Shown: one piece after another, positions 4,289-46,991 of the stretch | Numbering within the stretch: position 1 is the stretch's first letter | Layout of the letters: every line of letters begins with the position of its first letter | Assembly (NCBI GenBank): GCA_964456235.1 | Contig: CAYWDX010000001.1 | Coordinates: 201,210 to 265,209 of the forward strand | From: an uncultured Candidatus Saccharibacteria bacterium | GTDB taxonomy: Bacteria > Patescibacteriota > Minisyncoccia > UBA6257 > 2-01-FULL-56-20 | Length of the DNA: 64,000 nt | Reading direction: 5' to 3' | Notes under the pieces: model-generated | What the model was told of the DNA's origin: nothing | Seen by the model: the letters and a program-made list of their open reading frames with translations, nothing else | Database searches by the model: none | Position numbers and translations under genes: made by a program

Positions 4289-4312
4289 GTTATCCACGCT
4301 TTTATCCACACC
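4289..4312 (+). promoter_or_regulatory. Two direct DnaA-box-like 9-mers (TTATCCACG, TTATCCACA) upstream of dcd
   Basis: ctgtggTTATCCACGcttTTATCCACAccc lies in the glyA-dcd intergenic region. Confidence 0.4.
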
Positions 4313-4953: not shown

Positions 4954-5602
4954 GATCAAATCATTGCTCGGCAGCCGCGAGAACGCCGACCGTCTCGAGG
5001 CGCGGATGAAAGAACTGGATTCGAATCTCAAGAAAACGAGCACCCACCGGCAGCTGAATCATTATTTTGAGGGCCGCGGTGATTGGAACGCGGTCGCACG
5101 GGTGATTGCGGACAACGCCGTGCGCCAGGAATTTTTGTCCCTCGCCACAAAAGCCAAGGATTTCTCGCTCCGCTCGCGCGACGCGGATGGCAAGGTTTTG
5201 CTAGTATTAAAGGCCTCCGTGGACGACACGACGAGCGCCAATGGCACCGCCCGGCGGGAATTTGAACGCGAAGTTGCGATGGCTCTTGATGATCTCGACA
5301 AGGCGCTCCTCGATGCCGGGTTCACCTACCAAGCGAAATGGTCGCGCGAGCGGAGCGAATTTTCTTTTTCGGGTGCGAACGTGATGATTGATAAAAATGC
5401 CGGCTACGGCTACCTCGCCGAATTTGAAAAAATAGAAAATGATTCTTCGCGCGCCGACGCCGCAAAAGCAGAATTGCGCGATCTCATGAAAAAAGCGGGA
5501 TGCGAAGAATTAAACCAGGATCGCCTCGCTCGGATGTTCGCCTATTACAACGAGCACTGGCCCGAATATTACGGCACCGAAAAGATTTTCGTGATACCGT
5601 AG
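4940..5602 (+). CDS. CYTH-domain protein (CyaB/ThTPase-like triphosphate tunnel metalloenzyme)
   Basis: N-terminal EIEIK (ExExK) signature of CYTH domains. Overlaps the dcd 3' end by 14 nt. Confidence 0.6.
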   Translation: MYEIEIKSLLGSRENADRLEARMKELDSNLKKTSTHRQLNHYFEGRGDWNAVARVIADNAVRQEFLSLATKAKDFSLRSRDADGKVLLVLKASVDDTTSANGTARREFEREVAMALDDLDKALLDAGFTYQAKWSRERSEFSFSGANVMIDKNAGYGYLAEFEKIENDSSRADAAKAELRDLMKKAGCEELNQDRLARMFAYYNEHWPEYYGTEKIFVIP

Positions 5603-6619: not shown

Positions 6620-7119
6620 TTCTTCCTTTCGTAGACTTGGAACTCGTAGTCAACCGGATTTTTTTCGTCCCGCGAGTGCTTTTCAGAGTTGACGAGCTGC
6701 CAGTCGACATCGTTTAATGTTGGGAAAAATGTGTCGCCGGTCACCCGGTCGCGCACGCGCGTGAGATAAACCCGTTTCACGTGCGGGAGCGCCGTTTCAT
6801 AAACGCGCCCGCCGCCGATCACAAATATTTCCCCGCTGTCCCCGGCCAGCCGATTCTCCGCCGCGCGTATCGCATCCGAAAACGACTGCACCGCGATGCA
6901 TCCTTCCGCCTTCCACGCCGAATCCGTCGTTATCACAATGTTCACGCGGCCAGGCAGGGGTTTCCCGATCGATTCGAACGTTTTCCGCCCCATGATGACC
7001 GGGTGCCCCATCGTGAGCTCCTTGAAATGCTTGAGGTCGGCAGGAAGGTGCCAAGGGATTTTGCCGCCTGCACCGATCGCGCCGCCTTCATCAGTCGCAA
7101 CTATAATAGAGAGGTCCAT
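6616..7119 (-). CDS. folA: Dihydrofolate reductase
   Basis: 167 aa; MDLSIIVATDEGGAIGAGGKIPWHLPADLKHFKELTMGHPVIMGRKTFESIG matches the DHFR consensus. Convergent with and overlapping thyA by 4 nt. Confidence 0.9.
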   Translation of the reverse strand: MDLSIIVATDEGGAIGAGGKIPWHLPADLKHFKELTMGHPVIMGRKTFESIGKPLPGRVNIVITTDSAWKAEGCIAVQSFSDAIRAAENRLAGDSGEIFVIGGGRVYETALPHVKRVYLTRVRDRVTGDTFFPTLNDVDWQLVNSEKHSRDEKNPVDYEFQVYERKN

Positions 7120-7191
7120 CGGTATGATTATACACAGCTTTTCACGTCTTGCGCTTATGTTTGTCGAGGTGTTCTGCTAGAATCAAAGCAT

Positions 7192-8043: not shown

Positions 8044-10628
8044 AGCATGTAACGAAAATCGCGGCCGTAGGATTTCTCGTCGCGGTCACGGCGGTTGCCG
8101 CCGTGAGCTTCGCGCCACATCGTTCGAATGCCCAGAGCGCTCCGGCCATCACACTTTGCGCTGGGAATTCTTCTCTGTCTGGCGGAGGCTCTAACGCTTA
8201 CCGCCGATTCGATGTGCAGTGCGTGACTGGGCCCTCGGTAAGCCTCTGGCACGGGATGGATCCTCAAACGATCACCATGAGCTGGGCTGGGCCGTCAACC
8301 TATACCGGACAAGATTTCAGCATCGCTTTTCAAGACAGCGAGAGCAATTCGGGTACGGGATGTTTTAACGGCGGGGGCAGCAACCCAAATTCAACGTACG
8401 CGACGACACCTCCGGTGAGCGCGGGTGGCGGGAGCGACATAGCCGTGAACGGCGGGTCTAACACGCCCGAATGTTTTTCTGCAAACATCATTTACAACCC
8501 CGGTTTCGTGAACAATGCGACGATCAATGGCGCCACTCTGTTCTGCTCAGGTAACACCTGCACCGTTTCACTTTCCACAAACGTGACGTCCGCCGGGGCA
8601 ACGTGCACCGTTGACTCTCCAACCGTCACATCCGGACAGGTGGCGACGTTCACCGTCACTCCTTCGGGAACTTTCACGATGACCAAAACAACTTCGCGTT
8701 TCGCTTTCATCGTGAAGCCGCTCCAAAATCTTGCTTCGGCGATTCAAGGATTCTTTAGTCCGCGCGCATATGGGAACCAGGCGCCGATACTGCAAAATGG
8801 TGGAGGCGGTGGCGGGGGTGGAGGAGGTGGCGGCACGGGGACGACCACGCCCAACTATTCATGGAACGCGAACCCGTCAGGAATGATCGCCTGCGGTAAT
8901 GCGGCGACGTGCACCACCGCACCACTTACCGCTTCGATCGCGCCCGGCCAGATCACGACCGTCGTCCAGAGCCAGAGCGGCGCGACTTCCGTGACCGCAA
9001 GCTGCCCCGGCGTCACCGTCGTGGGTGCGCCCGGAACCATCACCGTGAATTCGCAGAATTCCCAAACCGGCCAGCCGGTTGCGGCGACCTGGGATTTCCC
9101 GGATGCGTATGATCCATGCCAGAGCGCATCATGCTCAAACTTGACGTCTGCCACCTATAACAATGTTCCTTCTGAAAGCACTTACGAGCCAATTCCTTCG
9201 GGTTCAAGTCAACAAGGCCAGTTCGCTTTTAATACTTCGAGGGGCTTTGCTTCTATGGCGTTTGCTCCAAATTTCCTGAAGGGACTCGTGAACATTGCTG
9301 CTGCATACACCGTAGCACCGGGGCCCCAATACTTGCCCTCCGGTGGGACCGTTGCGTTTACTATTAATTGGGATCCTATCGCTGCACTCCAAATTTCTGC
9401 CGGAACGTCCGCGCTCACTTCTTCAAGTACGAATGACACGATCACCATCACGAACACCGGTGCGCCAGGATCGAACCTCACGTGGACTTCGAGCGTGAGC
9501 TACAGCCAGGGAAATAACTGGCTCACAGTTTCACCTGCTTCTAACGGAGCGGGCTTGGTCAACGGAACTTCTGGTAACGTATCGCAAAATGTGACGGTTA
9601 CGGCAAACCCCGCGGCCGTGGGCAACGTGCCGGGCACTTACAATGCGACGGTTTCCTTTGTCGGGAACTCGGAAACGTCATGCGCCGATAATATAGGCTG
9701 CCCCCTTCCCTCCACGCCACTTTCTGTTTCTCTCACTATCCCGAATCCCCCGCCGCCAGGCTCTTCGGTGAGCGGCGTGAGCGTTAGTTGTGTGCCGAGT
9801 TCGATCCAGGTGCAGCAGACGTCGGCATGTACCGCCGTCGTCTCGGGATCCGGCAGCTTCAATAACACCGTCGTTTGGAATACTAACTTTGGGACAATTA
9901 ATTCGAGTGGCGTTTACACCGCTCCTTCAAATGCGACGGGCACGGCGACCGTCACCGCGACCTCGGTCCAGGACAGTACACAGTCTGGAACGGCGACCGT
10001 GCAGGTTAGCGCGGCCGGATCCGGAATCCCGGGCAACGGCGCGAGTACGGTTACGAGCGTTACGATTAGTTGCAATCCGAGTCAGGTGAACACAAACGGC
10101 GTGAGCTCGTGCACGGGAGTCGTGAATGGCACCGGCAACCCGAGCCAGGCTATCACGTGGAGCACGAACTTCGGCTCGATCAACAGCGCCGGGACCTATG
10201 TTGCCCCTGGCGTCGCAGGAACCGCAACGGTTTTCGGCACTTCCGCCCAGGATCCAACCAAGAGCGACAACACAACGATTGATGTTACCACTCCGTCTGC
10301 TCCGCCCGGGCCGCCCGGCGGTGGTGGTGGAGGCGGTGGAGGAGGGGGTGGCGGTGTTGGTGCCCCAAGTTGTACCTTCTCGATCCAGCCGAACCGCATA
10401 ATCCCTCCGGCACAAGCGACCGTGAGTTGGTCTTGCACCAACAGTCCGACGTGCACACTCTCTGACGGAACGAACCCGCCGATGCCGGTGAATGCGACGC
10501 AGAGTATCCTCATCAGCCCAACGCGCACCACCGTCTACACGCTCTCCTGTTCCAATGCCGGCGGATCGTTTAACGCATCGAGCACGATCGTGGTCCAGGG
10601 ATCAAGAATTATTGAGATCAATCCGTAG
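8040..10628 (+). CDS. Large secreted surface protein with Ig-like (Big_2-type) repeats and two poly-Gly linkers
   Basis: Signal peptide MKHVTKIAAVGFLVAVTAVAAVSFA. Repeated TATVTATSVQD.T.SGTATV motifs. G13 and PPGPPG-G13 tracts are encoded by mixed GGN codons. Rich in S/T/N/G. Confidence 0.7.
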   Translation: MKHVTKIAAVGFLVAVTAVAAVSFAPHRSNAQSAPAITLCAGNSSLSGGGSNAYRRFDVQCVTGPSVSLWHGMDPQTITMSWAGPSTYTGQDFSIAFQDSESNSGTGCFNGGGSNPNSTYATTPPVSAGGGSDIAVNGGSNTPECFSANIIYNPGFVNNATINGATLFCSGNTCTVSLSTNVTSAGATCTVDSPTVTSGQVATFTVTPSGTFTMTKTTSRFAFIVKPLQNLASAIQGFFSPRAYGNQAPILQNGGGGGGGGGGGGTGTTTPNYSWNANPSGMIACGNAATCTTAPLTASIAPGQITTVVQSQSGATSVTASCPGVTVVGAPGTITVNSQNSQTGQPVAATWDFPDAYDPCQSASCSNLTSATYNNVPSESTYEPIPSGSSQQGQFAFNTSRGFASMAFAPNFLKGLVNIAAAYTVAPGPQYLPSGGTVAFTINWDPIAALQISAGTSALTSSSTNDTITITNTGAPGSNLTWTSSVSYSQGNNWLTVSPASNGAGLVNGTSGNVSQNVTVTANPAAVGNVPGTYNATVSFVGNSETSCADNIGCPLPSTPLSVSLTIPNPPPPGSSVSGVSVSCVPSSIQVQQTSACTAVVSGSGSFNNTVVWNTNFGTINSSGVYTAPSNATGTATVTATSVQDSTQSGTATVQVSAAGSGIPGNGASTVTSVTISCNPSQVNTNGVSSCTGVVNGTGNPSQAITWSTNFGSINSAGTYVAPGVAGTATVFGTSAQDPTKSDNTTIDVTTPSAPPGPPGGGGGGGGGGGGGVGAPSCTFSIQPNRIIPPAQATVSWSCTNSPTCTLSDGTNPPMPVNATQSILISPTRTTVYTLSCSNAGGSFNASSTIVVQGSRIIEINP

Positions 10629-19913: not shown

Positions 19914-19937
19914 TTGATCTTCATTATCACGGTGCGT

Positions 19938-19977
19938 GTTACCAGTAAAATGGTGGCACGCACCTTTTTTGTTCTTA
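19938..19977 (+). terminator. Rho-independent terminator
   Basis: GGTGCGTG ... CACGCACC stem followed by TTTTTTGTT, after the J-domain gene. Confidence 0.6.
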
Positions 19978-20183
19978 AACTATCCGGAGATCATGCTAAT
20001 AGTTCGCTTATTAATAAATAAAAGAAAGGGCCGCCAGCAATGTGACGGCCCGAAGGTAGAAAACTTGCGTATGAGTACGCCGAGGCGAATTTCGCCAGAA
20101 CCGGTTGGGACCGGAGATAAATGAAAGTGATTATTACAATGTAACTACAATTAGTTTAGGGCTTTATCTATCTGGCCACAAGC

Positions 20184-21377
20184 CTAACCTGTGGATAACC
20201 TGTAGAAGCGCTTTTTGCCCACTCGCATGACCTCACCGCCGTTGATTTTCAAGCTTTCCTGGGGCGCCCTTACTACCTTGCCGCCTACTTCAAAACCGCC
20301 TTGTTCGATCAGCCGCCGCCCCTCTCCGTTACTCTTCAAGCTGCCCGAAAGCATCACGAGCTCGAGCGCCGTGAGAGATTTCTTCTTTATGGTAAGGACT
20401 GGGATATCCGCGGGAATTTCTTTTTTCGAAAACAGCGCCTCGAATTTTTCTTTTGCTGCGGTCGCCTCTTTCTCGCCGTGATAGCGTTTTGCAACTTCAA
20501 AGGCCAAACGTTCCTTCAAGAGTTTCGGATTGATTTTCTTTTTTAATAATTTCTTAACCTCGGCGATTTCACCAAGAGGCATGTCGGTCGTCATTTCAAA
20601 ATATTCGGGGATCAATTCATCCCGGAGCGCCATGACTTTGCCAAACTGCTCGTCGGCGGTGTCGGAAACATTAATGGTATTCCCCCAGCTTTTTGACATT
20701 TTGCGGCCATCCGGGCCAACCAGAAGCTTTGTTGTCAAAATGTTTTGCGGCTTTTGGCCGTAATGCTCCTGAATTTTCCGCCCCGCAAGCAAGTTGAACA
20801 GCTGGTCGGACCCGCCGAGCTCGACGTCTGCCTTCACCGCCACGGAATCGTATCCCTGATAGAGCGGGTAGTGGAATTCGCGCAAACTGATTTCTTCATG
20901 CTTCTCCCAACGAGTTTTAAAATTGCGGCGCTCGATCATTTGGCGGATGGTGAAGAGATCGGCGAGCGAATCGAGTTCATGAAGCGAAAGTTTTTTGAGC
21001 CACTCGCTATTGTAGCGGATTTCGGTTTTCCGCAAATTCAAAATATTCCCGATCTGCGGCAAATAATTTTTCAAATTTTTCTTGACCTGGTCGGCGCTCA
21101 GCATAGGCCGCTGCGAAATCTTGTCGGATGCGTCGCCGATCTGCGCCGTGAAATCGCCAATAATAAGGACGGCGGTGTGGCCGAGCCCCTGGAACGCCCG
21201 CAGCTTCCACAAAACCGTGGCATAGCCGATATGGATAAACTCCCCCGTCGGATCAATCCCCAATTTCACGCGTAACTTCTTTCCTGAAGCGAGTGCCGCT
21301 TCGAGATTTTTTGAGTCAACCACTTCCTCAACATTCCGTGTGAGAACATCGCGAATCTTGTTCATATCCACCGCCAT
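20184..21377 (-). CDS. tyrS: Tyrosyl-tRNA synthetase
   Basis: HIGH-region equivalent (FIHIGYATVL), KMSKS motif (RKMSKSWGN) and C-terminal S4-like domain. Confidence 0.9.
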   Translation of the reverse strand: MAVDMNKIRDVLTRNVEEVVDSKNLEAALASGKKLRVKLGIDPTGEFIHIGYATVLWKLRAFQGLGHTAVLIIGDFTAQIGDASDKISQRPMLSADQVKKNLKNYLPQIGNILNLRKTEIRYNSEWLKKLSLHELDSLADLFTIRQMIERRNFKTRWEKHEEISLREFHYPLYQGYDSVAVKADVELGGSDQLFNLLAGRKIQEHYGQKPQNILTTKLLVGPDGRKMSKSWGNTINVSDTADEQFGKVMALRDELIPEYFEMTTDMPLGEIAEVKKLLKKKINPKLLKERLAFEVAKRYHGEKEATAAKEKFEALFSKKEIPADIPVLTIKKKSLTALELVMLSGSLKSNGEGRRLIEQGGFEVGGKVVRAPQESLKINGGEVMRVGKKRFYRLSTG

Positions 21378-26010: not shown

Positions 26011-26050
26011 CCTGCGACATGCCCTTTAAAAAAGTCCGCTCACGAGCGGA
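26011..26050 (-). terminator. Rho-independent terminator downstream of yraN
   Basis: GTCCGCTCGTGAGCGGAC followed by TTTTTTAAA on the minus strand. Confidence 0.6.
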
Positions 26051-26104
26051 CTCCACACATGCCATTATTGTACTCGTTTTTTTATTTCTGTCAATTTGCC
26101 GCTA

Positions 26105-26497
26105 TCAAATGTTTTTGTAGTGCCGCATGGCGATCGGATTGCCACTTTCGGATAGATCGACCGCGATGAGGTCGATCCGCCAACCAATCTCATCATCTAT
26201 AAGGTCTTGATTTCGGCGAGCAAAGATTTGGCGGGCAAAGAACTGTGCGGTCCGGTTGAGTTTACGAAGTTTTGCGGCCGATAGGTTGTCTTCGGGTGAA
26301 AAACCTCCTCGTTTTACTAAGGCCTTGACCTCTACGAAGACCAGCACCCTGATCGTGTCAATAGCTACGATATCCACCTCATCCGACCGATTTCTTTGAT
26401 TTCTAGCCAGAATTCTCCACCCTTTTTTTATCAAAAACTGGCATGCGACCTCCTCGCCGATATGCCCATTTCTAGCCGATTTTCTTATGAACTTCAT
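26105..26497 (-). CDS. yraN: YraN-family (UPF0102) endonuclease-like protein
   Basis: GEEVACQFLIKKGWRILARNQRNRSDEVDIVAI...LVFVEVKA matches the YraN consensus. Confidence 0.75.
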   Translation of the reverse strand: MKFIRKSARNGHIGEEVACQFLIKKGWRILARNQRNRSDEVDIVAIDTIRVLVFVEVKALVKRGGFSPEDNLSAAKLRKLNRTAQFFARQIFARRNQDLIDDEIGWRIDLIAVDLSESGNPIAMRHYKNI

Positions 26498-26538
26498 TAA
26501 GTTTTAATTAAAAATTTATTAATTATTCGATAATCTTT

Positions 26539-26652
26539 TTAATTGTGTTTATCGGTAAACACAATTTAAATTCAAATAATTTTAATTATGTTTACCGGTA
26601 AACATATTTTTAATCATTAAATCAATTTTAATTGTGTTTATCGGTAAACACT
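26539..26652. promoter_or_regulatory. Three operator/iteron-like palindromes TGTTTA(Y)CGGTAAACA spaced ~44 bp apart
   Basis: Sites at 26541..26566, 26588..26605 (perfect 18-bp palindrome ATGTTTACCGGTAAACAT) and 26631..26652, in an AT-rich intergenic region between yraN and the dksA-like gene. Confidence 0.6.
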
Positions 26653-26907
26653 TTGTGGAACATTTTTGTTTAACATCAAGTAAAATGGGCTTTATAGCGG
26701 ATTTGAATTAAAAAGAAATTATTAAAAATAATGCGGAAATGCGGCAAAAATCGTATGCGGAAATTGCCGGATAGCTTTGCCGGATTAATTAGGCAATTTA
26801 TAGACATAGATTCCGGCAATTGCCTTAATATTTTTTTAATTAAATTTTGTACTTCATTAAGTCTTAATGTTTTCGTTTTTTGACTCGGTCGGTTAGAATT
26901 TGATTCA

Positions 26908-27243
26908 ATGACTGACAAAAATTTTGATGAGTATAAAAAGAAACTCGAAGGGGAGCGCCGGATGCTCCTTGCGGAGATAAAACAGGCCGAACGACCGCCA
27001 CGGTTTGGTGATGCGGAGGATCCTGATTGGGATGAGAAGACCGACGAAGCGGAGGAGTTATCAAAGCAACTTGCCATCGCGGGAGATCTCAAGAAGCGAC
27101 TGGACGAGATCGACATCGCTCTCTCAAAAATTTATTCAGGCAAGTATGGTGTCTGTGAAAAATGCGGCGGTGCCATCGAGCGTGAGGTATTGGAGGTTGA
27201 TCCCGCATCCCGGCTTTGCAAAGATTGCAAATCACGATCGTAA
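26908..27243 (+). CDS. DksA/TraR-family C4-type zinc-finger protein
   Basis: Coiled-coil N-terminus and a C-terminal CEKCGGAIEREVLEVDPASRLCKDCKS zinc finger. Confidence 0.75.
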   Translation: MTDKNFDEYKKKLEGERRMLLAEIKQAERPPRFGDAEDPDWDEKTDEAEELSKQLAIAGDLKKRLDEIDIALSKIYSGKYGVCEKCGGAIEREVLEVDPASRLCKDCKSRS

Positions 27244-27295: not shown

Positions 27296-28858
27296 GTGAT
27301 CAAAAATCTTGCCAGAACCTATTCGGCGGAACTTGAGGGGATTAACGCAAGACTGATCGAAGTTGAAATCGACATCAATGTCGGCCTTCACGCATTCAAC
27401 ATCGTTGGGCTAGCCGACCGCGCATTGAACGAGGCGCGCGAACGGGTGAACTCGGCGATCAAAAATTCTGGCGCCAAGCCGCCGAATCGGGAGAATCGGA
27501 AAATCACGGTCAACCTCGCGCCTGCCGATGTAAAAAAGACTGGTTCGCATTACGACCTTGCCATCGCGCTTGGTTATTTGTTTGCGACAAAGCAAATTGC
27601 ACGATTTGAAACCAGCGACAAAATTTTTGTTGGTGAATTAGCGCTTGATGGACGCTTGCGGCCGATCAGCGGCGCGCTCAATATCGCAGAATTGGCTGCG
27701 AAAAGGGGATTCAGAAAATTATTTCTGCCGCCAGAAAATGCCGCCGAAGCGGCGGCGATCAAAAACATCAGAATCGTCGCGGTTGAAAATTTGACAGCGG
27801 CGATCGCAATACTCGAGGGACGCGGAGAGCGAGCTTCAACGGCAACGCAGGGCGATCAAGCTCCTCAACAACCACGAAGCTCTTTCCCGGATTTTTCTGA
27901 AATTGTCGGCCAGGAGAATGCTAAACGCGCGCTCACGATCGCCGCGAGCGGAAACCACAATTTGCTTTTTGCCGGCAGCCCCGGCGTTGGCAAAAGCATG
28001 CTCGCTCGAGCATTGGTTAGGATCCTGCCACCGCCGACGCTTGCCGAATCAATCGAGATTACGAAAATTTGGAGTGCTGCCGGGTTGAGCCCTGGCCGCT
28101 TGGTCACCGAGCGTCCATTTCGCGCGCCGCACCAAACTTCATCGGCGCTTGCGCTCGTGGGAGGTGGGGGAGACCCGAGGCCGGGGGAAATCAGCCTCGC
28201 GCATCGGGGAATCCTCTTTCTCGATGAGTTGCCAGAATTCTCAGCGAGCGCACTCGAAGCGCTCCGAGAGCCCATGGAATCTGGCGTTATTCGCGTTGCC
28301 CGAGCTAAACGCAGCGTCACGTTTCCCGCAAAGTTCGCGCTCGTCGCCGCGATGAATCCGTGCCCGTGCGGATTTTATGGAGACCCGGATGCAAATTGCA
28401 CGTGTGGTGCGTACGAGGTAATTCGTTACCAGCGAAAAATTTCAGGGCCCCTGCTTGATCGGATAGATCTTCAGGTGCGCGTGGGGCGTGTGAAGGTGGG
28501 GGAGTTGCGGGAAGACGGCGAGCGGGCGACAGGCGCGGAAATGATGGGTCCGAAAATCAAACAGTCGGTTGAGGCAGCGCGTGGGCGGCAGGCGGAACGA
28601 TTCAAAAATAGCGGCCGCAGCAGCGGGCTCATGACGAACGCCGATATGACCTCGCGCGAAGTGCGCGGCATGGTCGCCCTTGAACCAACGGCAAGAAAAT
28701 TCCTAGAAACCTTCGATACAAGCAGGGTCTCCGCGCGCGGTTATTATCGCATTCTCAAAGTCGCGCGCACGATCGCGGATATAGAAAACGCGGACCTCGT
28801 GTCCGCGGAACATCTCGCCGAAGCATTCAGCTATCGGCTGCGCGATGATACTTCGTGA
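27296..28858 (+). CDS. comM: YifB/ComM-family Mg-chelatase-like AAA+ ATPase
   Basis: N-terminal Lon-protease-like domain, Walker A LLFAGSPGVGKSML, Walker B ILFLDEL, C-terminal ComM domain. GTG start. Confidence 0.85.
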   Translation: MIKNLARTYSAELEGINARLIEVEIDINVGLHAFNIVGLADRALNEARERVNSAIKNSGAKPPNRENRKITVNLAPADVKKTGSHYDLAIALGYLFATKQIARFETSDKIFVGELALDGRLRPISGALNIAELAAKRGFRKLFLPPENAAEAAAIKNIRIVAVENLTAAIAILEGRGERASTATQGDQAPQQPRSSFPDFSEIVGQENAKRALTIAASGNHNLLFAGSPGVGKSMLARALVRILPPPTLAESIEITKIWSAAGLSPGRLVTERPFRAPHQTSSALALVGGGGDPRPGEISLAHRGILFLDELPEFSASALEALREPMESGVIRVARAKRSVTFPAKFALVAAMNPCPCGFYGDPDANCTCGAYEVIRYQRKISGPLLDRIDLQVRVGRVKVGELREDGERATGAEMMGPKIKQSVEAARGRQAERFKNSGRSSGLMTNADMTSREVRGMVALEPTARKFLETFDTSRVSARGYYRILKVARTIADIENADLVSAEHLAEAFSYRLRDDTS

Positions 28859-37422: not shown

Positions 37423-37920
37423 ATGCAATATCAAGTGCCGCAATTTATCGAGACCGAAGACAAGATCGTGGGCCCCCTTACGCTCCGCCAGTTTATTTAT
37501 GTGGGCATTGGCGCCCTGCTTTCCGCCCTCCTTTATTTCATGGTCCAGACGTGGCTCTGGCTGATTCTCTCTATATTTATAGTAGGAATTGCTGTGGGGG
37601 TTGCTTTTGTGAAGGTTGAGGGCCGGGCGCTCGGCAATGTTATTCTTTCGGCGGCAAGCTTCTATTGGAACCCCCAGACCTACGTTTGGCAGGCGGCGCA
37701 TGCTGCAAAGGCTCCGAAATCCCAGGGAGACTCGGGGTTTGTTGCATCTCTCCAGAAGATCGCGGAGGGCGCGGCGCTTCGCAAGCACTGGGAAAGCCTG
37801 CAGACGGGGGAAAAGATGTCGGCTGAAAAGTTTGCCGAAAAGAAAATGAATGAGCGTTACGCTATCTTTCGCACGATCATGGGCGATCGTGAAGCGGCGC
37901 GGCGAGTGGATTACCGGTAA
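37423..37920 (+). CDS. PrgI-family (VirB3-like) small membrane protein
   Basis: MQYQVPQFIETEDKIVGPLTLRQFIYV followed by two TM helices, the typical PrgI-family N-terminus, located immediately upstream of virB4. Confidence 0.65.
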   Translation: MQYQVPQFIETEDKIVGPLTLRQFIYVGIGALLSALLYFMVQTWLWLILSIFIVGIAVGVAFVKVEGRALGNVILSAASFYWNPQTYVWQAAHAAKAPKSQGDSGFVASLQKIAEGAALRKHWESLQTGEKMSAEKFAEKKMNERYAIFRTIMGDREAARRVDYR

Positions 37921-45401: not shown

Positions 45402-45518
45402 TGATCGGATAGTACCACAACAATAAAATTTGCGCCAGGGATTTTTGTCATGGTAGAAATGGTTATACACACGTCGTCCACAGAAGGAAACGATTTGACT
45501 CTTTCATCGGGCGAGCGT

Positions 45519-46901
45519 ATGAGTAATAATGAATCAATAAAAAATATGGATCTCGACCAACTTTGGCAATCGACCCTAGGAGAGATGGAGATCCACCTCA
45601 CGAAGGCAAACTTTTCAATGTGGCTGAAGGGAAGCCGCCCCGTGAACCGCGATGAGGGTACTTTGTTCATCGCTCTCCCCAGCGTTTTTGCAAAAAACTG
45701 GGTGGAAAATAAATACCAGAAGAATATTTTGGGAGTTTTGCGGAATTTGGACAGTTCGGTGAAGAAGGTTGAGTATGTCATCAACCCGAAGGAGCGTCCG
45801 GCAGAAAAAGTTGCCGTCGACGTGAAAGAGCTGAACAAAGCAGAGGCTGCGGCAGAGCTGGAATTCAATCAAACGAATCCCGAAACAAATCTCAACCCGC
45901 GCTATACCTTTTCAACGTTTGTCGTCGGACCGTCGAATGAGCTCGCGTATGCCGCCGCAAAAGCGATCACGGAAAAAATCGGGAAATACAATCCATTCTA
46001 TGTGTACGGCGGCGTCGGGTTGGGGAAGACTCATTTGATCCAGGCGATCGGGAATGAAATTTATGAAAAATATGGCAAGAAAATCCGGCCAAAATATGTT
46101 CCCTCCGAACAATTCACGCGCGAGGTGGTGTGGGGTCTCCGCAATGACCGCATCGAGAGCGTAAAAAAGAAATATCGCGACGCCGACGTCCTTATTGTCG
46201 ACGACATCCAGTTTATTGGCGGCAAAGAGAAAACCGAAGAGGAATTTTTCCATACTTTTAACGCCCTCTACGAGGGGAACAAGCAGATCATCATCTCCTC
46301 TGACCGCCCACCCCAGTCCATCCCGACATTAGAAGCCCGCCTCCGGTCGCGATTTGAGGGCGGTTTTGTTGCAGATGTGGGCTATCCGGAGTACGAAATG
46401 CGCGTGGCGATTGTCCGCAGCAAGCTGATGGAATCCCAGCGCGAGCTCTCGGAAGATGTTGTTGATTTGATCGCCCGGCGCCTCCGGAAGAATATTCGTG
46501 AGCTTGAGGGGGTCCTTAAGAAGCTCCTCTTTCTCCAGGAGCAGCGGAAAGTCCAGATCACGGCAGACGCGGCGGAGGAGATTATTGAAAAGCTTACCCA
46601 GAACGGCGCGCGGCGCGTGAGCGATTCGCAGATTTTGAAGGCGGTCGCCGACTATTTCAACGTCTCACTCGAAGACCTCGTGAGCCATAACCGCCGCAAA
46701 GAAGTGGTTGAGCCGCGGCAGATCGCCATGTACTTACTTCGGGAAATCTCCGAGCTTTCATACCCATATATTGGGGAAAAAATGGGGAGGGACCACACCA
46801 CCGCGATCCACTCCTATGAAAAAATTAACCAGGAGATTAACAGGAATTCAACACTAAACCAAAAGATATTAACAATTAAGGATTTGATTTATAAAAGCTA
46901 G
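45519..46901 (+). CDS. dnaA: Chromosomal replication initiator protein DnaA
   Basis: AAA+ Walker A GGVGLGKTHL and C-terminal DNA-binding domain (RQIAMYLLRE...HTT). Start uncertain; alternatives are GTG 45450 and ATG 45546. Confidence 0.9.
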   Translation: MSNNESIKNMDLDQLWQSTLGEMEIHLTKANFSMWLKGSRPVNRDEGTLFIALPSVFAKNWVENKYQKNILGVLRNLDSSVKKVEYVINPKERPAEKVAVDVKELNKAEAAAELEFNQTNPETNLNPRYTFSTFVVGPSNELAYAAAKAITEKIGKYNPFYVYGGVGLGKTHLIQAIGNEIYEKYGKKIRPKYVPSEQFTREVVWGLRNDRIESVKKKYRDADVLIVDDIQFIGGKEKTEEEFFHTFNALYEGNKQIIISSDRPPQSIPTLEARLRSRFEGGFVADVGYPEYEMRVAIVRSKLMESQRELSEDVVDLIARRLRKNIRELEGVLKKLLFLQEQRKVQITADAAEEIIEKLTQNGARRVSDSQILKAVADYFNVSLEDLVSHNRRKEVVEPRQIAMYLLREISELSYPYIGEKMGRDHTTAIHSYEKINQEINRNSTLNQKILTIKDLIYKS

Positions 46902-46991
46902 ACGAAGAATTCTTCGTCTTATCCACAAAAATCCAAACCCCACTAGTAATAACAAATCTTAATAATTAATTAATATTATTAATTCCATTTT
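46901..46991. promoter_or_regulatory. oriC candidate: 18-bp palindrome, perfect DnaA box TTATCCACA (46919..46927) and AT-rich unwinding element
   Basis: GACGAAGAATTCTTCGTC is a perfect palindrome right after the dnaA stop. It is followed by TTATCCACA and then a run that is almost all A/T (aataattaattaatattattaattccatttt) up to the dnaN start. Confidence 0.6.

Follow-up and report, generated by a model that had tools for sequence, protein, structure and literature searches.

In the 64,000-nucleotide stretch of an uncultured Candidatus Saccharibacteria genome analyzed here (contig CAYWDX010000001.1, positions 201,210 to 265,209; hereafter the window), an AT-rich divergent spacer at 26498..26907, to which no strand is assigned, separates the gene yraN from a dksA/traR-like gene that is followed by comM. 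Very probably, this spacer is a conserved platform on which a dimeric protein would bind specific DNA sequences, and a second family of motifs lies beside these putative sites. More tentatively, with a probability that we put at about 45%, it is a shared operator array that controls the yraN and the dksA-like-comM promoters and is bound by dimeric proteins. The sites themselves are real, are confined to the spacer, and have kept the same motif, order and position on both sides of a deep lineage split.

No other stretch of the window is as AT-rich as the spacer, whose GC content is 26%, compared with 54% overall, and drops as low as 0.16 over 150 bp; three palindromes lie on its yraN side. The first of these, proximal to yraN (26541..26566), is the 26-bp AATTGTGTTTATCGGTAAACACAATT, which has one asymmetric centre pair and a core, TGTTTATCGGTAAACA (26546-26561), whose yraN-side half lies over the predicted -35 element of that gene. 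The second (26588..26605) is the perfect 18-mer ATGTTTACCGGTAAACAT with the core TGTTTACCGGTAAACA at 26589-26604, and the third, GTGTTTATCGGTAAACAC at 26634..26651 (core 26635-26650), opens a core of ~130 bp that is conserved in the alignment of relatives. The centres of the three cores (26553.5, 26596.5, and 26642.5) are 43 and 46 bp apart, and a repeat search placed one palindrome in each of three tandem direct repeats of ~46 bp (26527..26661) with 72-76% identity. A search of the 64 kb for the 14-mer GTTTAYCGGTAAAC with up to two mismatches gave eight strand-hits where 0.46 are expected, a count that was matched in none of 100 shuffles, and beyond the spacer there was a single match, at 37909, with two mismatches. 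The AT-richness, palindromes and shorter repeats listed in a first-pass annotation of the window were all found on direct reading, with computed coordinates, the third palindrome falling within the interval 26631-26652 that had been assigned to it.

Judging by how the nearest homologues of its NusA and DnaA are named, the window belongs to a Candidatus Paceibacterota/Minisyncoccia genome of the candidate phyla radiation. Conservation of this arrangement was examined in two sets of loci. Seven close relatives (L089, L090, L092, L093, L095, L096/L097, and L098) were fetched by way of their NusA homologues, which are 73-84% identical, and all seven have the order ksgA-uvrD-(M23)-comM-dksA-like, an AT-rich spacer, and yraN-nusA-PPase-clpP-tyrS. 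A metagenome scan for phased palindrome pairs returned seven loci. In L087, a contig from Hainich groundwater whose NusA is 55% identical, H+-PPase, nusA, and yraN are followed by a region of 30% GC with six palindrome copies (up to one mismatch) and one degenerate copy, and then by the palindrome CGGCAATTTGCCG; the yraN and dksA genes of this contig are not divergent, and an extra palindrome unit of ~50 bp lies upstream of its dksA/traR gene (Pfam 6e-8). A semi-close ComM match, L001, obtained by searching genome contigs with ComM, was without the synteny.

Across these eight relatives an AT-rich spacer of 340-770 bp lies upstream of yraN, in seven of them between yraN and dksA-like-comM, with a GC content of 22-37% against 45-59% for the loci, and it holds two to seven palindromes with the consensus TGTTT-nn-CG-nn-AAACA. 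When TGTTTnnCGnnAAACA was sought with up to one mismatch in its 12 fixed positions, the nine orthologous spacers, the window included, gave 22 dyad-symmetric sites of dimer size in 3,965 bp, compared with three in the 208,384 bp of their flanks, two of which adjoin an array, and none in 879,596 bp of unrelated bacterial loci. In all nine genomes, 21-50 nt separate the end of the yraN-proximal palindrome from the yraN ATG; in the window this palindrome lies over the predicted -35 element, the promoter itself being called from its consensus. The bases at the centre of the palindrome are uniform within a genome and different between genomes, which points to homogenisation of neighbouring copies. 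The first-pass annotation had held that a motif absent elsewhere, together with a spacer not conserved in relatives, would suggest low-complexity DNA of no function; the motif does not recur elsewhere in the window, yet the comparative alignment demonstrated a spacer that is clearly conserved and, since both parts were required, that verdict does not apply.

The conserved anatomy, read from the yraN side, begins with two or three palindromes (seven in L087) with constant outer pentamers and a constant central CpG. These are followed by tandem AAACAATTTTG 12-mers, the second of which makes AAACAATTTTGTTT, by a TAGG-W5-T..GGCTTATCGGGTT block, by an AT-rich stretch with a nearly invariant AATCCGGCAATCCGGCAAA and more CCGGCAA boxes in both orientations, and finally by a variable segment with a -10 element (TAGAAT or TATCCT) against the dksA-like ATG. 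The seven closest relatives share the ~130-bp core, which ends in AATCCGGCAA boxes. In the window the 12-mers and the AAACAATTTTGTTT palindrome are present in degenerate form, as AACACTTTGTG GAACATTTTTGTTTAAC at 26647..26672 (alignment columns 25-55), and the conserved block reads GTAAAATGGGCTT..CGGATTTG at 26680..26705 (columns 68-100). A cluster of CCGGCAA-type boxes in both orientations then occupies 26732..26824, which contains the window's copies of the second motif family, AATCCGGCAA: GCGGAAA at 26733, GCGGCAA at 26741, GCGGAAA at 26757, TTGCCGG at 26764 and 26777, GGCAAT at 26792 and, as the last box, CCGGCAATTGCC at 26813-26824. The short repeats TGCGGAAAT/TGCGGCAAA (26732, 26740, and 26756), TTGCCGGAT (26764 and 26777), and GGCAATTGCC (26815-26824) are this genome's versions of the conserved AATCCGGCAA family. 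CCGGCAA is enriched 17-80x in the spacers of the close relatives and 8-fold in that of L087, and a box falls within the predicted core promoter of the dksA-like gene in L095, L089, and L092. The L095 sequence is interrupted by three N runs of 100 nt each (5253-5352, 7027-7126, and 9183-9282), one of them inside the CCGGCAA-box cluster and probably an assembly gap or a masked repetitive stretch.

The genes on the two sides of the spacer give these sites their context. On the left, yraN (26105..26497, minus strand) encodes a UPF0102 protein of the PD-(D/E)XK nuclease type (Pfam PF02021, E = 9.5e-20), orthologues of which adjoin the spacer in all relatives. On the right, a dksA/traR-type zinc-finger gene (26908..27243, plus strand; Pfam PF01258, 1.2e-6) heads the right-hand unit and has orthologues of 50-62% identity in the relatives, so both gene names given in the first-pass annotation were correct. 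It is followed by comM (27296..28858, plus strand), which encodes a Mg-chelatase/MCM-like helicase (Pfam Mg_chelatase 1.5e-88, ChlI, MCM), after a gap of 52 nt in the window and of 39-119 nt in seven of seven close relatives. A separate predicted promoter for nusA, TTGACA-16-TACAAT (26094..26067, minus strand), is followed by a terminator-like leader hairpin, the two together occupying 26025..26094, and a near-consensus promoter of this type (TTGACA-N16-18-TAYAAT) is found in the yraN-nusA gap of eight of the nine genomes. With a promoter belonging to nusA itself, yraN forms a unit of its own and the leftward promoter of the spacer serves yraN alone; with comM behind the dksA-like gene, the spacer is therefore the divergent control region of two partner units. 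YraN is a single-stranded DNA endonuclease of the PD-(D/E)XK type that interacts and co-evolves with the helicase ComM, the two acting jointly on the D-loop of natural transformation, and their genes are co-localised in 34% of the genomes that have both (bioRxiv 10.1101/2024.02.06.579203).

The promoters within the spacer are predicted from consensus matches only. That of yraN, TAAACA-18-AATAAT (26551..26522, minus strand), would use the half-site TAAACA of palindrome 1 as its -35 element. On the other side, a predicted -10 element, TAGAAT (26894..26899, plus strand), is located 8 nt ahead of the dksA-like ATG, which predicts an mRNA that is leaderless or has a very short leader; in the relatives this ATG immediately follows either TAGAAT or TATCCT with TTGCCT-N17. 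The nusA leader of the window and of the L087-L098 gaps has a conserved hairpin, GTCCGCT..AGCGGAC, and a T-run ~15-25 nt past the promoter, which has the look of a terminator or attenuator, through which NusA might regulate its own expression, or else of a tiny RNA.

If the spacer is a shared operator array, it would act as a bidirectional control region of two linked units, yraN leftward and dksA-like-comM rightward, on which two or more DNA-binding proteins, each specific for its own sequence, would bind. One of these would be a symmetric dimer that reads TGTTT-nn-CG-nn-AAACA, that is, five outer bases in each half-site and the central CpG but not the two bases between the pentamer and the CpG, and that would occupy the two to seven tandem copies. 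As the copy nearest yraN lies over the predicted -35 element, its occupancy would shut off yraN or might possibly switch it on, while the copies upstream would raise local occupancy. The other protein would recognise the AATCCGGCAA boxes, upstream of or across the dksA-like-comM promoter. We infer both the binding of protein to palindromes and boxes and the direction of regulation. The link to natural transformation would hold here by analogy, the experiments behind it having been made in Legionella, Acinetobacter, and Vibrio.

Among the roles suggested in the first-pass annotation, that of a multi-operator site for a dimeric regulator is the best-supported reading, as both the motif and its position upstream of yraN are kept in eight other genomes, the proximal copy lies at the expected -35 of yraN, and a similar core serves as a LacI-type operator elsewhere. 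This last example is provided by L085 and L086, where the near-identical core GTTTACCGATAAAC flanks a gene of the LacI family. Arrays of LacI/GalR-type operators in divergent promoters resemble the spacer in having a central CG and three copies in tandem at a spacing of 32-46 bp, and in lying over or near core promoter elements, which in the spacer are predicted ones. They differ from it in that the spacer has no adjacent gene for a cognate regulator and up to seven copies, and in that LacI-type operators usually conserve the bases next to the CpG, which vary here. In L085 (1790-3030) and L086 (3607-4850), which come from an unrelated organism with 53% GC, the gene is preceded by one GTTTACCGATAAAC operator and followed by three in tandem, with a spacing of 32 bp. 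A second known system of the operator kind is the competence promoter element CRP-S, a palindromic 5-6-5 site upstream of genes for recombination in transformation that co-regulates linked genes. CRP-S sites are found upstream of comM in gamma-proteobacteria and have the half-sites TGCGA or TGTGA, whereas the half-site here is TGTTT, the sites form a multi-copy array, and the other competence-type genes of the window have none.

Several observations weigh against control by a shared operator array. No gene for a helix-turn-helix, ribbon-helix-helix, or classical transcription factor adjoins the spacer, the small open reading frames of the window having been scanned as well, and the regulators that the window does encode are one of the OmpR type 25 kb away, YebC, and DnaA. 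The motif is absent from the other competence-type genes of the window (a pilB-like ATPase gene and ruvB/C), and hence a wider regulon is not visible. Both the copy number (2-7) and the spacing (34-126 bp) of the palindromes vary without fixed helical phasing; the AA/TT periodicity of the spacer likewise revealed no convincing phasing. The uniformity of the centres in each genome is more typical of homogenised arrays, such as centromeres and iterons, than of dispersed operators. In addition, the CCGGCAA boxes are inconsistently placed, being more than 100 nt upstream of the dksA-like promoter in L090, L096, and L098, and all of the promoters concerned are predictions.

The main rival proposal, which we regard as unlikely although it is compatible with the operator reading, is that the array is a relaxed parS-type centromere close to the origin, on which a dimer of the ParB family or a functional analogue loads and builds a partition or SMC-loading complex ~20 kb from oriC, the adjacent yraN and comM promoters perhaps being silenced as a side effect. 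The canonical parS consensus is TGTTTCACGTGAAACA, a 16-bp palindrome bound by ParB/Spo0J, and the 12 positions that are fixed in all Paceibacterota copies (TGTTT, CG, AAACA), the identical outer pentamers and central CG, are those of TGTTTCACGTGAAACA. A collection of 2.9 million viral contigs was scanned for phased pairs of TGTTTNNCGNNAAACA; 109 contigs had them, where chance predicts far fewer than one, and 336 of the 350 viral sites have the centre CACGTG and are canonical parS. The viral arrays have 2-8 copies 23-63 bp apart, the geometry seen in the window. Phages of the phi29 family exploit the host Spo0J, and phi29-type genes were present in three of five sampled viral loci (L152, L145, and L137), while a scan of all the collected loci for a ParB signature gave a single phage open reading frame, in L127, the one locus among seven inspected viral loci that encodes a ParB-like product. 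The viral scan thus indicates that the pattern occurs naturally as a ParB-type signature and that tandem arrays without an adjacent parB are real. Also in favour are the presence of one palindrome cluster in more than 64 kb, 18.5 kb from dnaA and 20 kb from the origin-like dnaA-dnaN gap (the position of oriC being that inferred from this gap), and the information content of 12 fixed positions (24 bits), which suffices to single out one site in 0.9 Mb of genome. The canonical form TGTTNCACGTGAAACA, with which the sites share 12 of 16 positions, is absent from the 64-kb window at up to three mismatches and from the dnaA flanks of three relatives, where the generalised pattern (up to one mismatch) is also absent within 10 kb on either side of dnaA. 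On the other side of the balance, positions 6-7 and 10-11 are not the CA/TG of parS and vary among close relatives, and Jalal et al. are said to have reported in 2020 that these are the positions that determine specificity in characterised ParB/Noc proteins. Neither parA nor parB turned up in the window, nor did the annotated nusA and dnaA flanks (10 kb) of the relatives contain one, and a literature search on ParB or parS in the candidate phyla radiation (CPR) found nothing relevant. A centromere also leaves unexplained the conserved 12-mers, the GGCTTATCGGG block, the CCGGCAA boxes, and the fixed place of the proximal site on the predicted yraN promoter. The F plasmid offers a related comparison, its sopC consisting of tandem ~43-bp direct repeats in AT-rich DNA that each hold a 16-bp inverted repeat, to which the three 43-46-bp units of the window (72-76% identical) and their homogenisation within but divergence between genomes correspond. 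The iteron array suggested in the first-pass annotation survives in this geometry only: the context is one of conserved chromosomal housekeeping genes, most genomes have 2-3 units, no sopAB, parAB, or rep gene is nearby, and the spacer has no sequence similarity to any plasmid. The broader proposition that Paceibacteria use a relaxed parS-type centromere, read at 12 of 16 positions and laid over the divergent yraN/comM promoters so as to gate the recombination of imported DNA, is more doubtful again; if it were true, one and the same complex would mark the origin region just after its replication and gate the recombination machinery for imported DNA, and chromosome segregation would be physically coupled to natural transformation in bacteria that are presumed to depend on DNA from outside.

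The same AT-richness and clustered sites could belong to a chromosomal origin, or to part of a split origin, in which the AT-rich DNA unwinds and the boxes or palindromes are sites for the initiator, a role that we consider very improbable. The spacer, very AT-rich and with tandem 12-mers and clustered short boxes, might provide an unwinding element, in every close relative the genes point away from it for at least 10 kb, and the pooled skew at third codon positions (GC3 skew), once gene strand is taken into account, shows a step across the spacer of +0.050 ± 0.014 in all nine genomes and of +0.053 ± 0.013 in the seven close relatives, with no step at the dnaA-dnaN gap (+0.015 ± 0.018, three relatives). 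The step is nonetheless seen in only five of the nine genomes individually and never as an inversion of sign; L087, with the strongest skew and the most palindromes, has -0.47 and -0.42 on the two sides, and the window's own skew is uninformative. DnaA boxes (up to one mismatch) number zero in six spacers, and one is found in L096/L097 only, even though canonical boxes are enriched across the window (17 vs 7.2 expected). By contrast, the dnaA region of the window and three relatives has a conserved pair of boxes 11 bp apart upstream of dnaA, and its dnaA-dnaN gap has at least one box followed by 40-50 bp of AT-rich DNA, the sole AT-rich island of those loci; neither of the two motifs of the spacer occurs there. 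The origin is therefore better placed at dnaA, because the spacer lacks DnaA boxes, the canonical features are at dnaA, and the skew is inconsistent; the first two of these points also count against the iteron array suggested in the first-pass annotation. The neighbourhood of ksgA, a type IV secretion system (T4SS), rnpA, rpmH, dnaA, and dnaN is typical of Paceibacteria, and the survey that described it takes the origin from dnaA only (PMC12102498). That T4SS, here a block with the TraR-like gene, an M23 hydrolase, a UvrD-like helicase, VirB4, and pilin, raises the further idea, to which we give very little weight, that the spacer is its oriT-like processing site. Inverted and short direct repeats in AT-rich DNA do stand at the head of a rightward block that ends with the T4SS, and a T4SS block near dnaA is typical of Paceibacteria, most T4SS clusters of Patescibacteria being without a relaxase (PMC12102498). 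Here too there is no relaxase, the T4SS core starts ~10 kb away, past ksgA, the palindromes of L087 stay with yraN in a sequenced locus with no evident T4SS, and the sites are multi-copy, unlike a nic site. A recent insertion, for example of a small non-autonomous element resembling a miniature inverted-repeat transposable element, has next to no probability. It would draw on the ends of the window's spacer, where the 18-nt direct repeat ACTTCATTAAGTYTTAAT (26491..26508 and 26851..26868, one mismatch between copies; 18-24 nt as a flanking repeat) encloses a 20-nt inverted repeat (26503-26522 / 26825-26844), both beating 200 of 200 dinucleotide shuffles and together having the form of terminal inverted repeats with a target-site duplication. 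The left copy overlaps the yraN start codon and is the yraN start region itself, ACTTAATGAAGT on the minus strand, duplicated at the other end of the spacer. These terminal repeats are found in the window only and are absent from the relatives' spacers. Since the relatives hold the module at the same place without terminal repeats, in eight other genomes and with no empty site, it is not a recent mobile insertion; it is also single-copy in the 64 kb, BLAST of the spacer against plasmids and phages gave AT-rich noise only, and the homing-endonuclease gene in the L089 spacer (see below) exemplifies a real insertion there. Finally, tandem interspaced palindromic repeats in a CPR genome might suggest a transcribed structured or guide RNA, such as a small RNA or a CRISPR- or TIGR-like (tandem interspaced guide RNA) array, which is effectively refuted and to which we assign a negligible probability. 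TIGR arrays do occur in CPR, and consist of 36-nt units with two alternating 8-12-nt repeats and ~9-nt variable spacers, usually in 5-15 units next to a Tas gene with a Nop domain (PMC12045711). The units here are 43-46 bp long and number only 2-3, the segments between palindromes resemble each other and hence are not CRISPR or TIGR spacers, and there is no Nop-domain or cas gene among the neighbouring open reading frames. The search for a non-coding RNA recommended in the first-pass annotation produced no family and no conserved fold: no Rfam family passed the gathering threshold, a permissive search (E up to 10) returned just miRNA-like noise on the hairpins, and RNAalifold of the conserved core gave -3.7 and -5.8 kcal/mol for the two strands with an unfavourable covariation term.

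To our knowledge, there is next to no information on how CPR/Patescibacteria regulate their genes or organise their chromosomes. Most of them have never been cultured, recognisable regulators are very scarce among them, and the uptake of DNA is believed to be central to their lifestyle. The module described here, of which literature searches found no description, is a concrete conserved cis-element between two genes recently shown to cooperate in integrating transforming DNA. Its defined 16-mer and 11-mer can be used for capture of the binding protein, for regulon scans, and for asking whether the parS code has been relaxed in small genomes. Even if the spacer is only a local operator array, it would still be the first candidate control element for transformation genes in the phylum.

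In the window at large, the gene order to the left of the spacer is tyrS, clpP, H+-PPase, nusA, and yraN, and to the right dksA-like, comM, an M23 peptidase gene on the opposite strand, uvrD, ksgA, and surface protein genes, followed by the VirB4/pilin type IV secretion block, jag, yidC, rnpA, rpmH, dnaA, and dnaN. The start of dnaA lies 18.5 kb rightward of the spacer, and the dnaA-dnaN gap 20 kb. The dnaA open reading frame of the window is 33 codons longer than those of the relatives (L099-L101), and its true start is probably near 45549 (region 45450-45549); the shorter frame leaves a gap of ~150 bp after rpmH that contains TTATACACA-N2-TCGTCCACA. The dnaA-dnaN gap (46902-46991) contains a hairpin, TTATCCACA, CCCCAC, TAGTAATAACAA, and AT-rich DNA, an arrangement similar to a DnaA-box/DnaA-trio unwinding module. 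Top-strand GC3 skew was followed over 10 kb to each side of the spacer in L089, L090, L092, L096, and L098: on the yraN side it is ~-0.10 to -0.145 whatever the direction of the genes, while the comM-side flank and both sides of dnaA are approximately neutral, an asymmetry that fits an origin at neither place. A DnaA box, TTATCCACAGG, over the tyrS stop codon (window 20190-20198, minus strand) is conserved in four genomes (the window, L089, L090, and L093) and is followed by 190-300 bp of structured-looking intergenic DNA (window 19914-20183) with no Rfam match; as an alternative oriC this lone box was rejected, as it is not a cluster. Two further DnaA boxes, one perfect and one with one mismatch, lie 12 bp apart in the divergent glyA/dcd spacer (window 4290-4310) and may reflect control of the dcd-CYTH-thyA nucleotide genes by DnaA.

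Other observations concern the relatives and the collections that were scanned. The spacer of L089 has, among its palindromes (8980-9468, minus strand), a gene for a 162-amino-acid, single-domain homologue of LAGLIDADG homing endonucleases (I-HjeMI and I-AniI, E = 9e-6). L089 is the sole genome with degenerate palindromes, and its close relative L092 keeps a remnant of the 3' end of the endonuclease gene. Many of the viral contigs from IMG/VR (L102-L210), phi29-like podoviruses among them, carry tandem canonical parS arrays, for example at L145:8226-8406 and L192:6137-6460, with further parS sites a few hundred to several thousand bp away. L082 and L084, considered as loci of the palindrome module, turned out to be unrelated two-site loci, and in L083 and L088 the motif scan picked up a long satellite of 39-bp tandem repeats (CCAGTTTACCGGTAAGCACTCTAC...).

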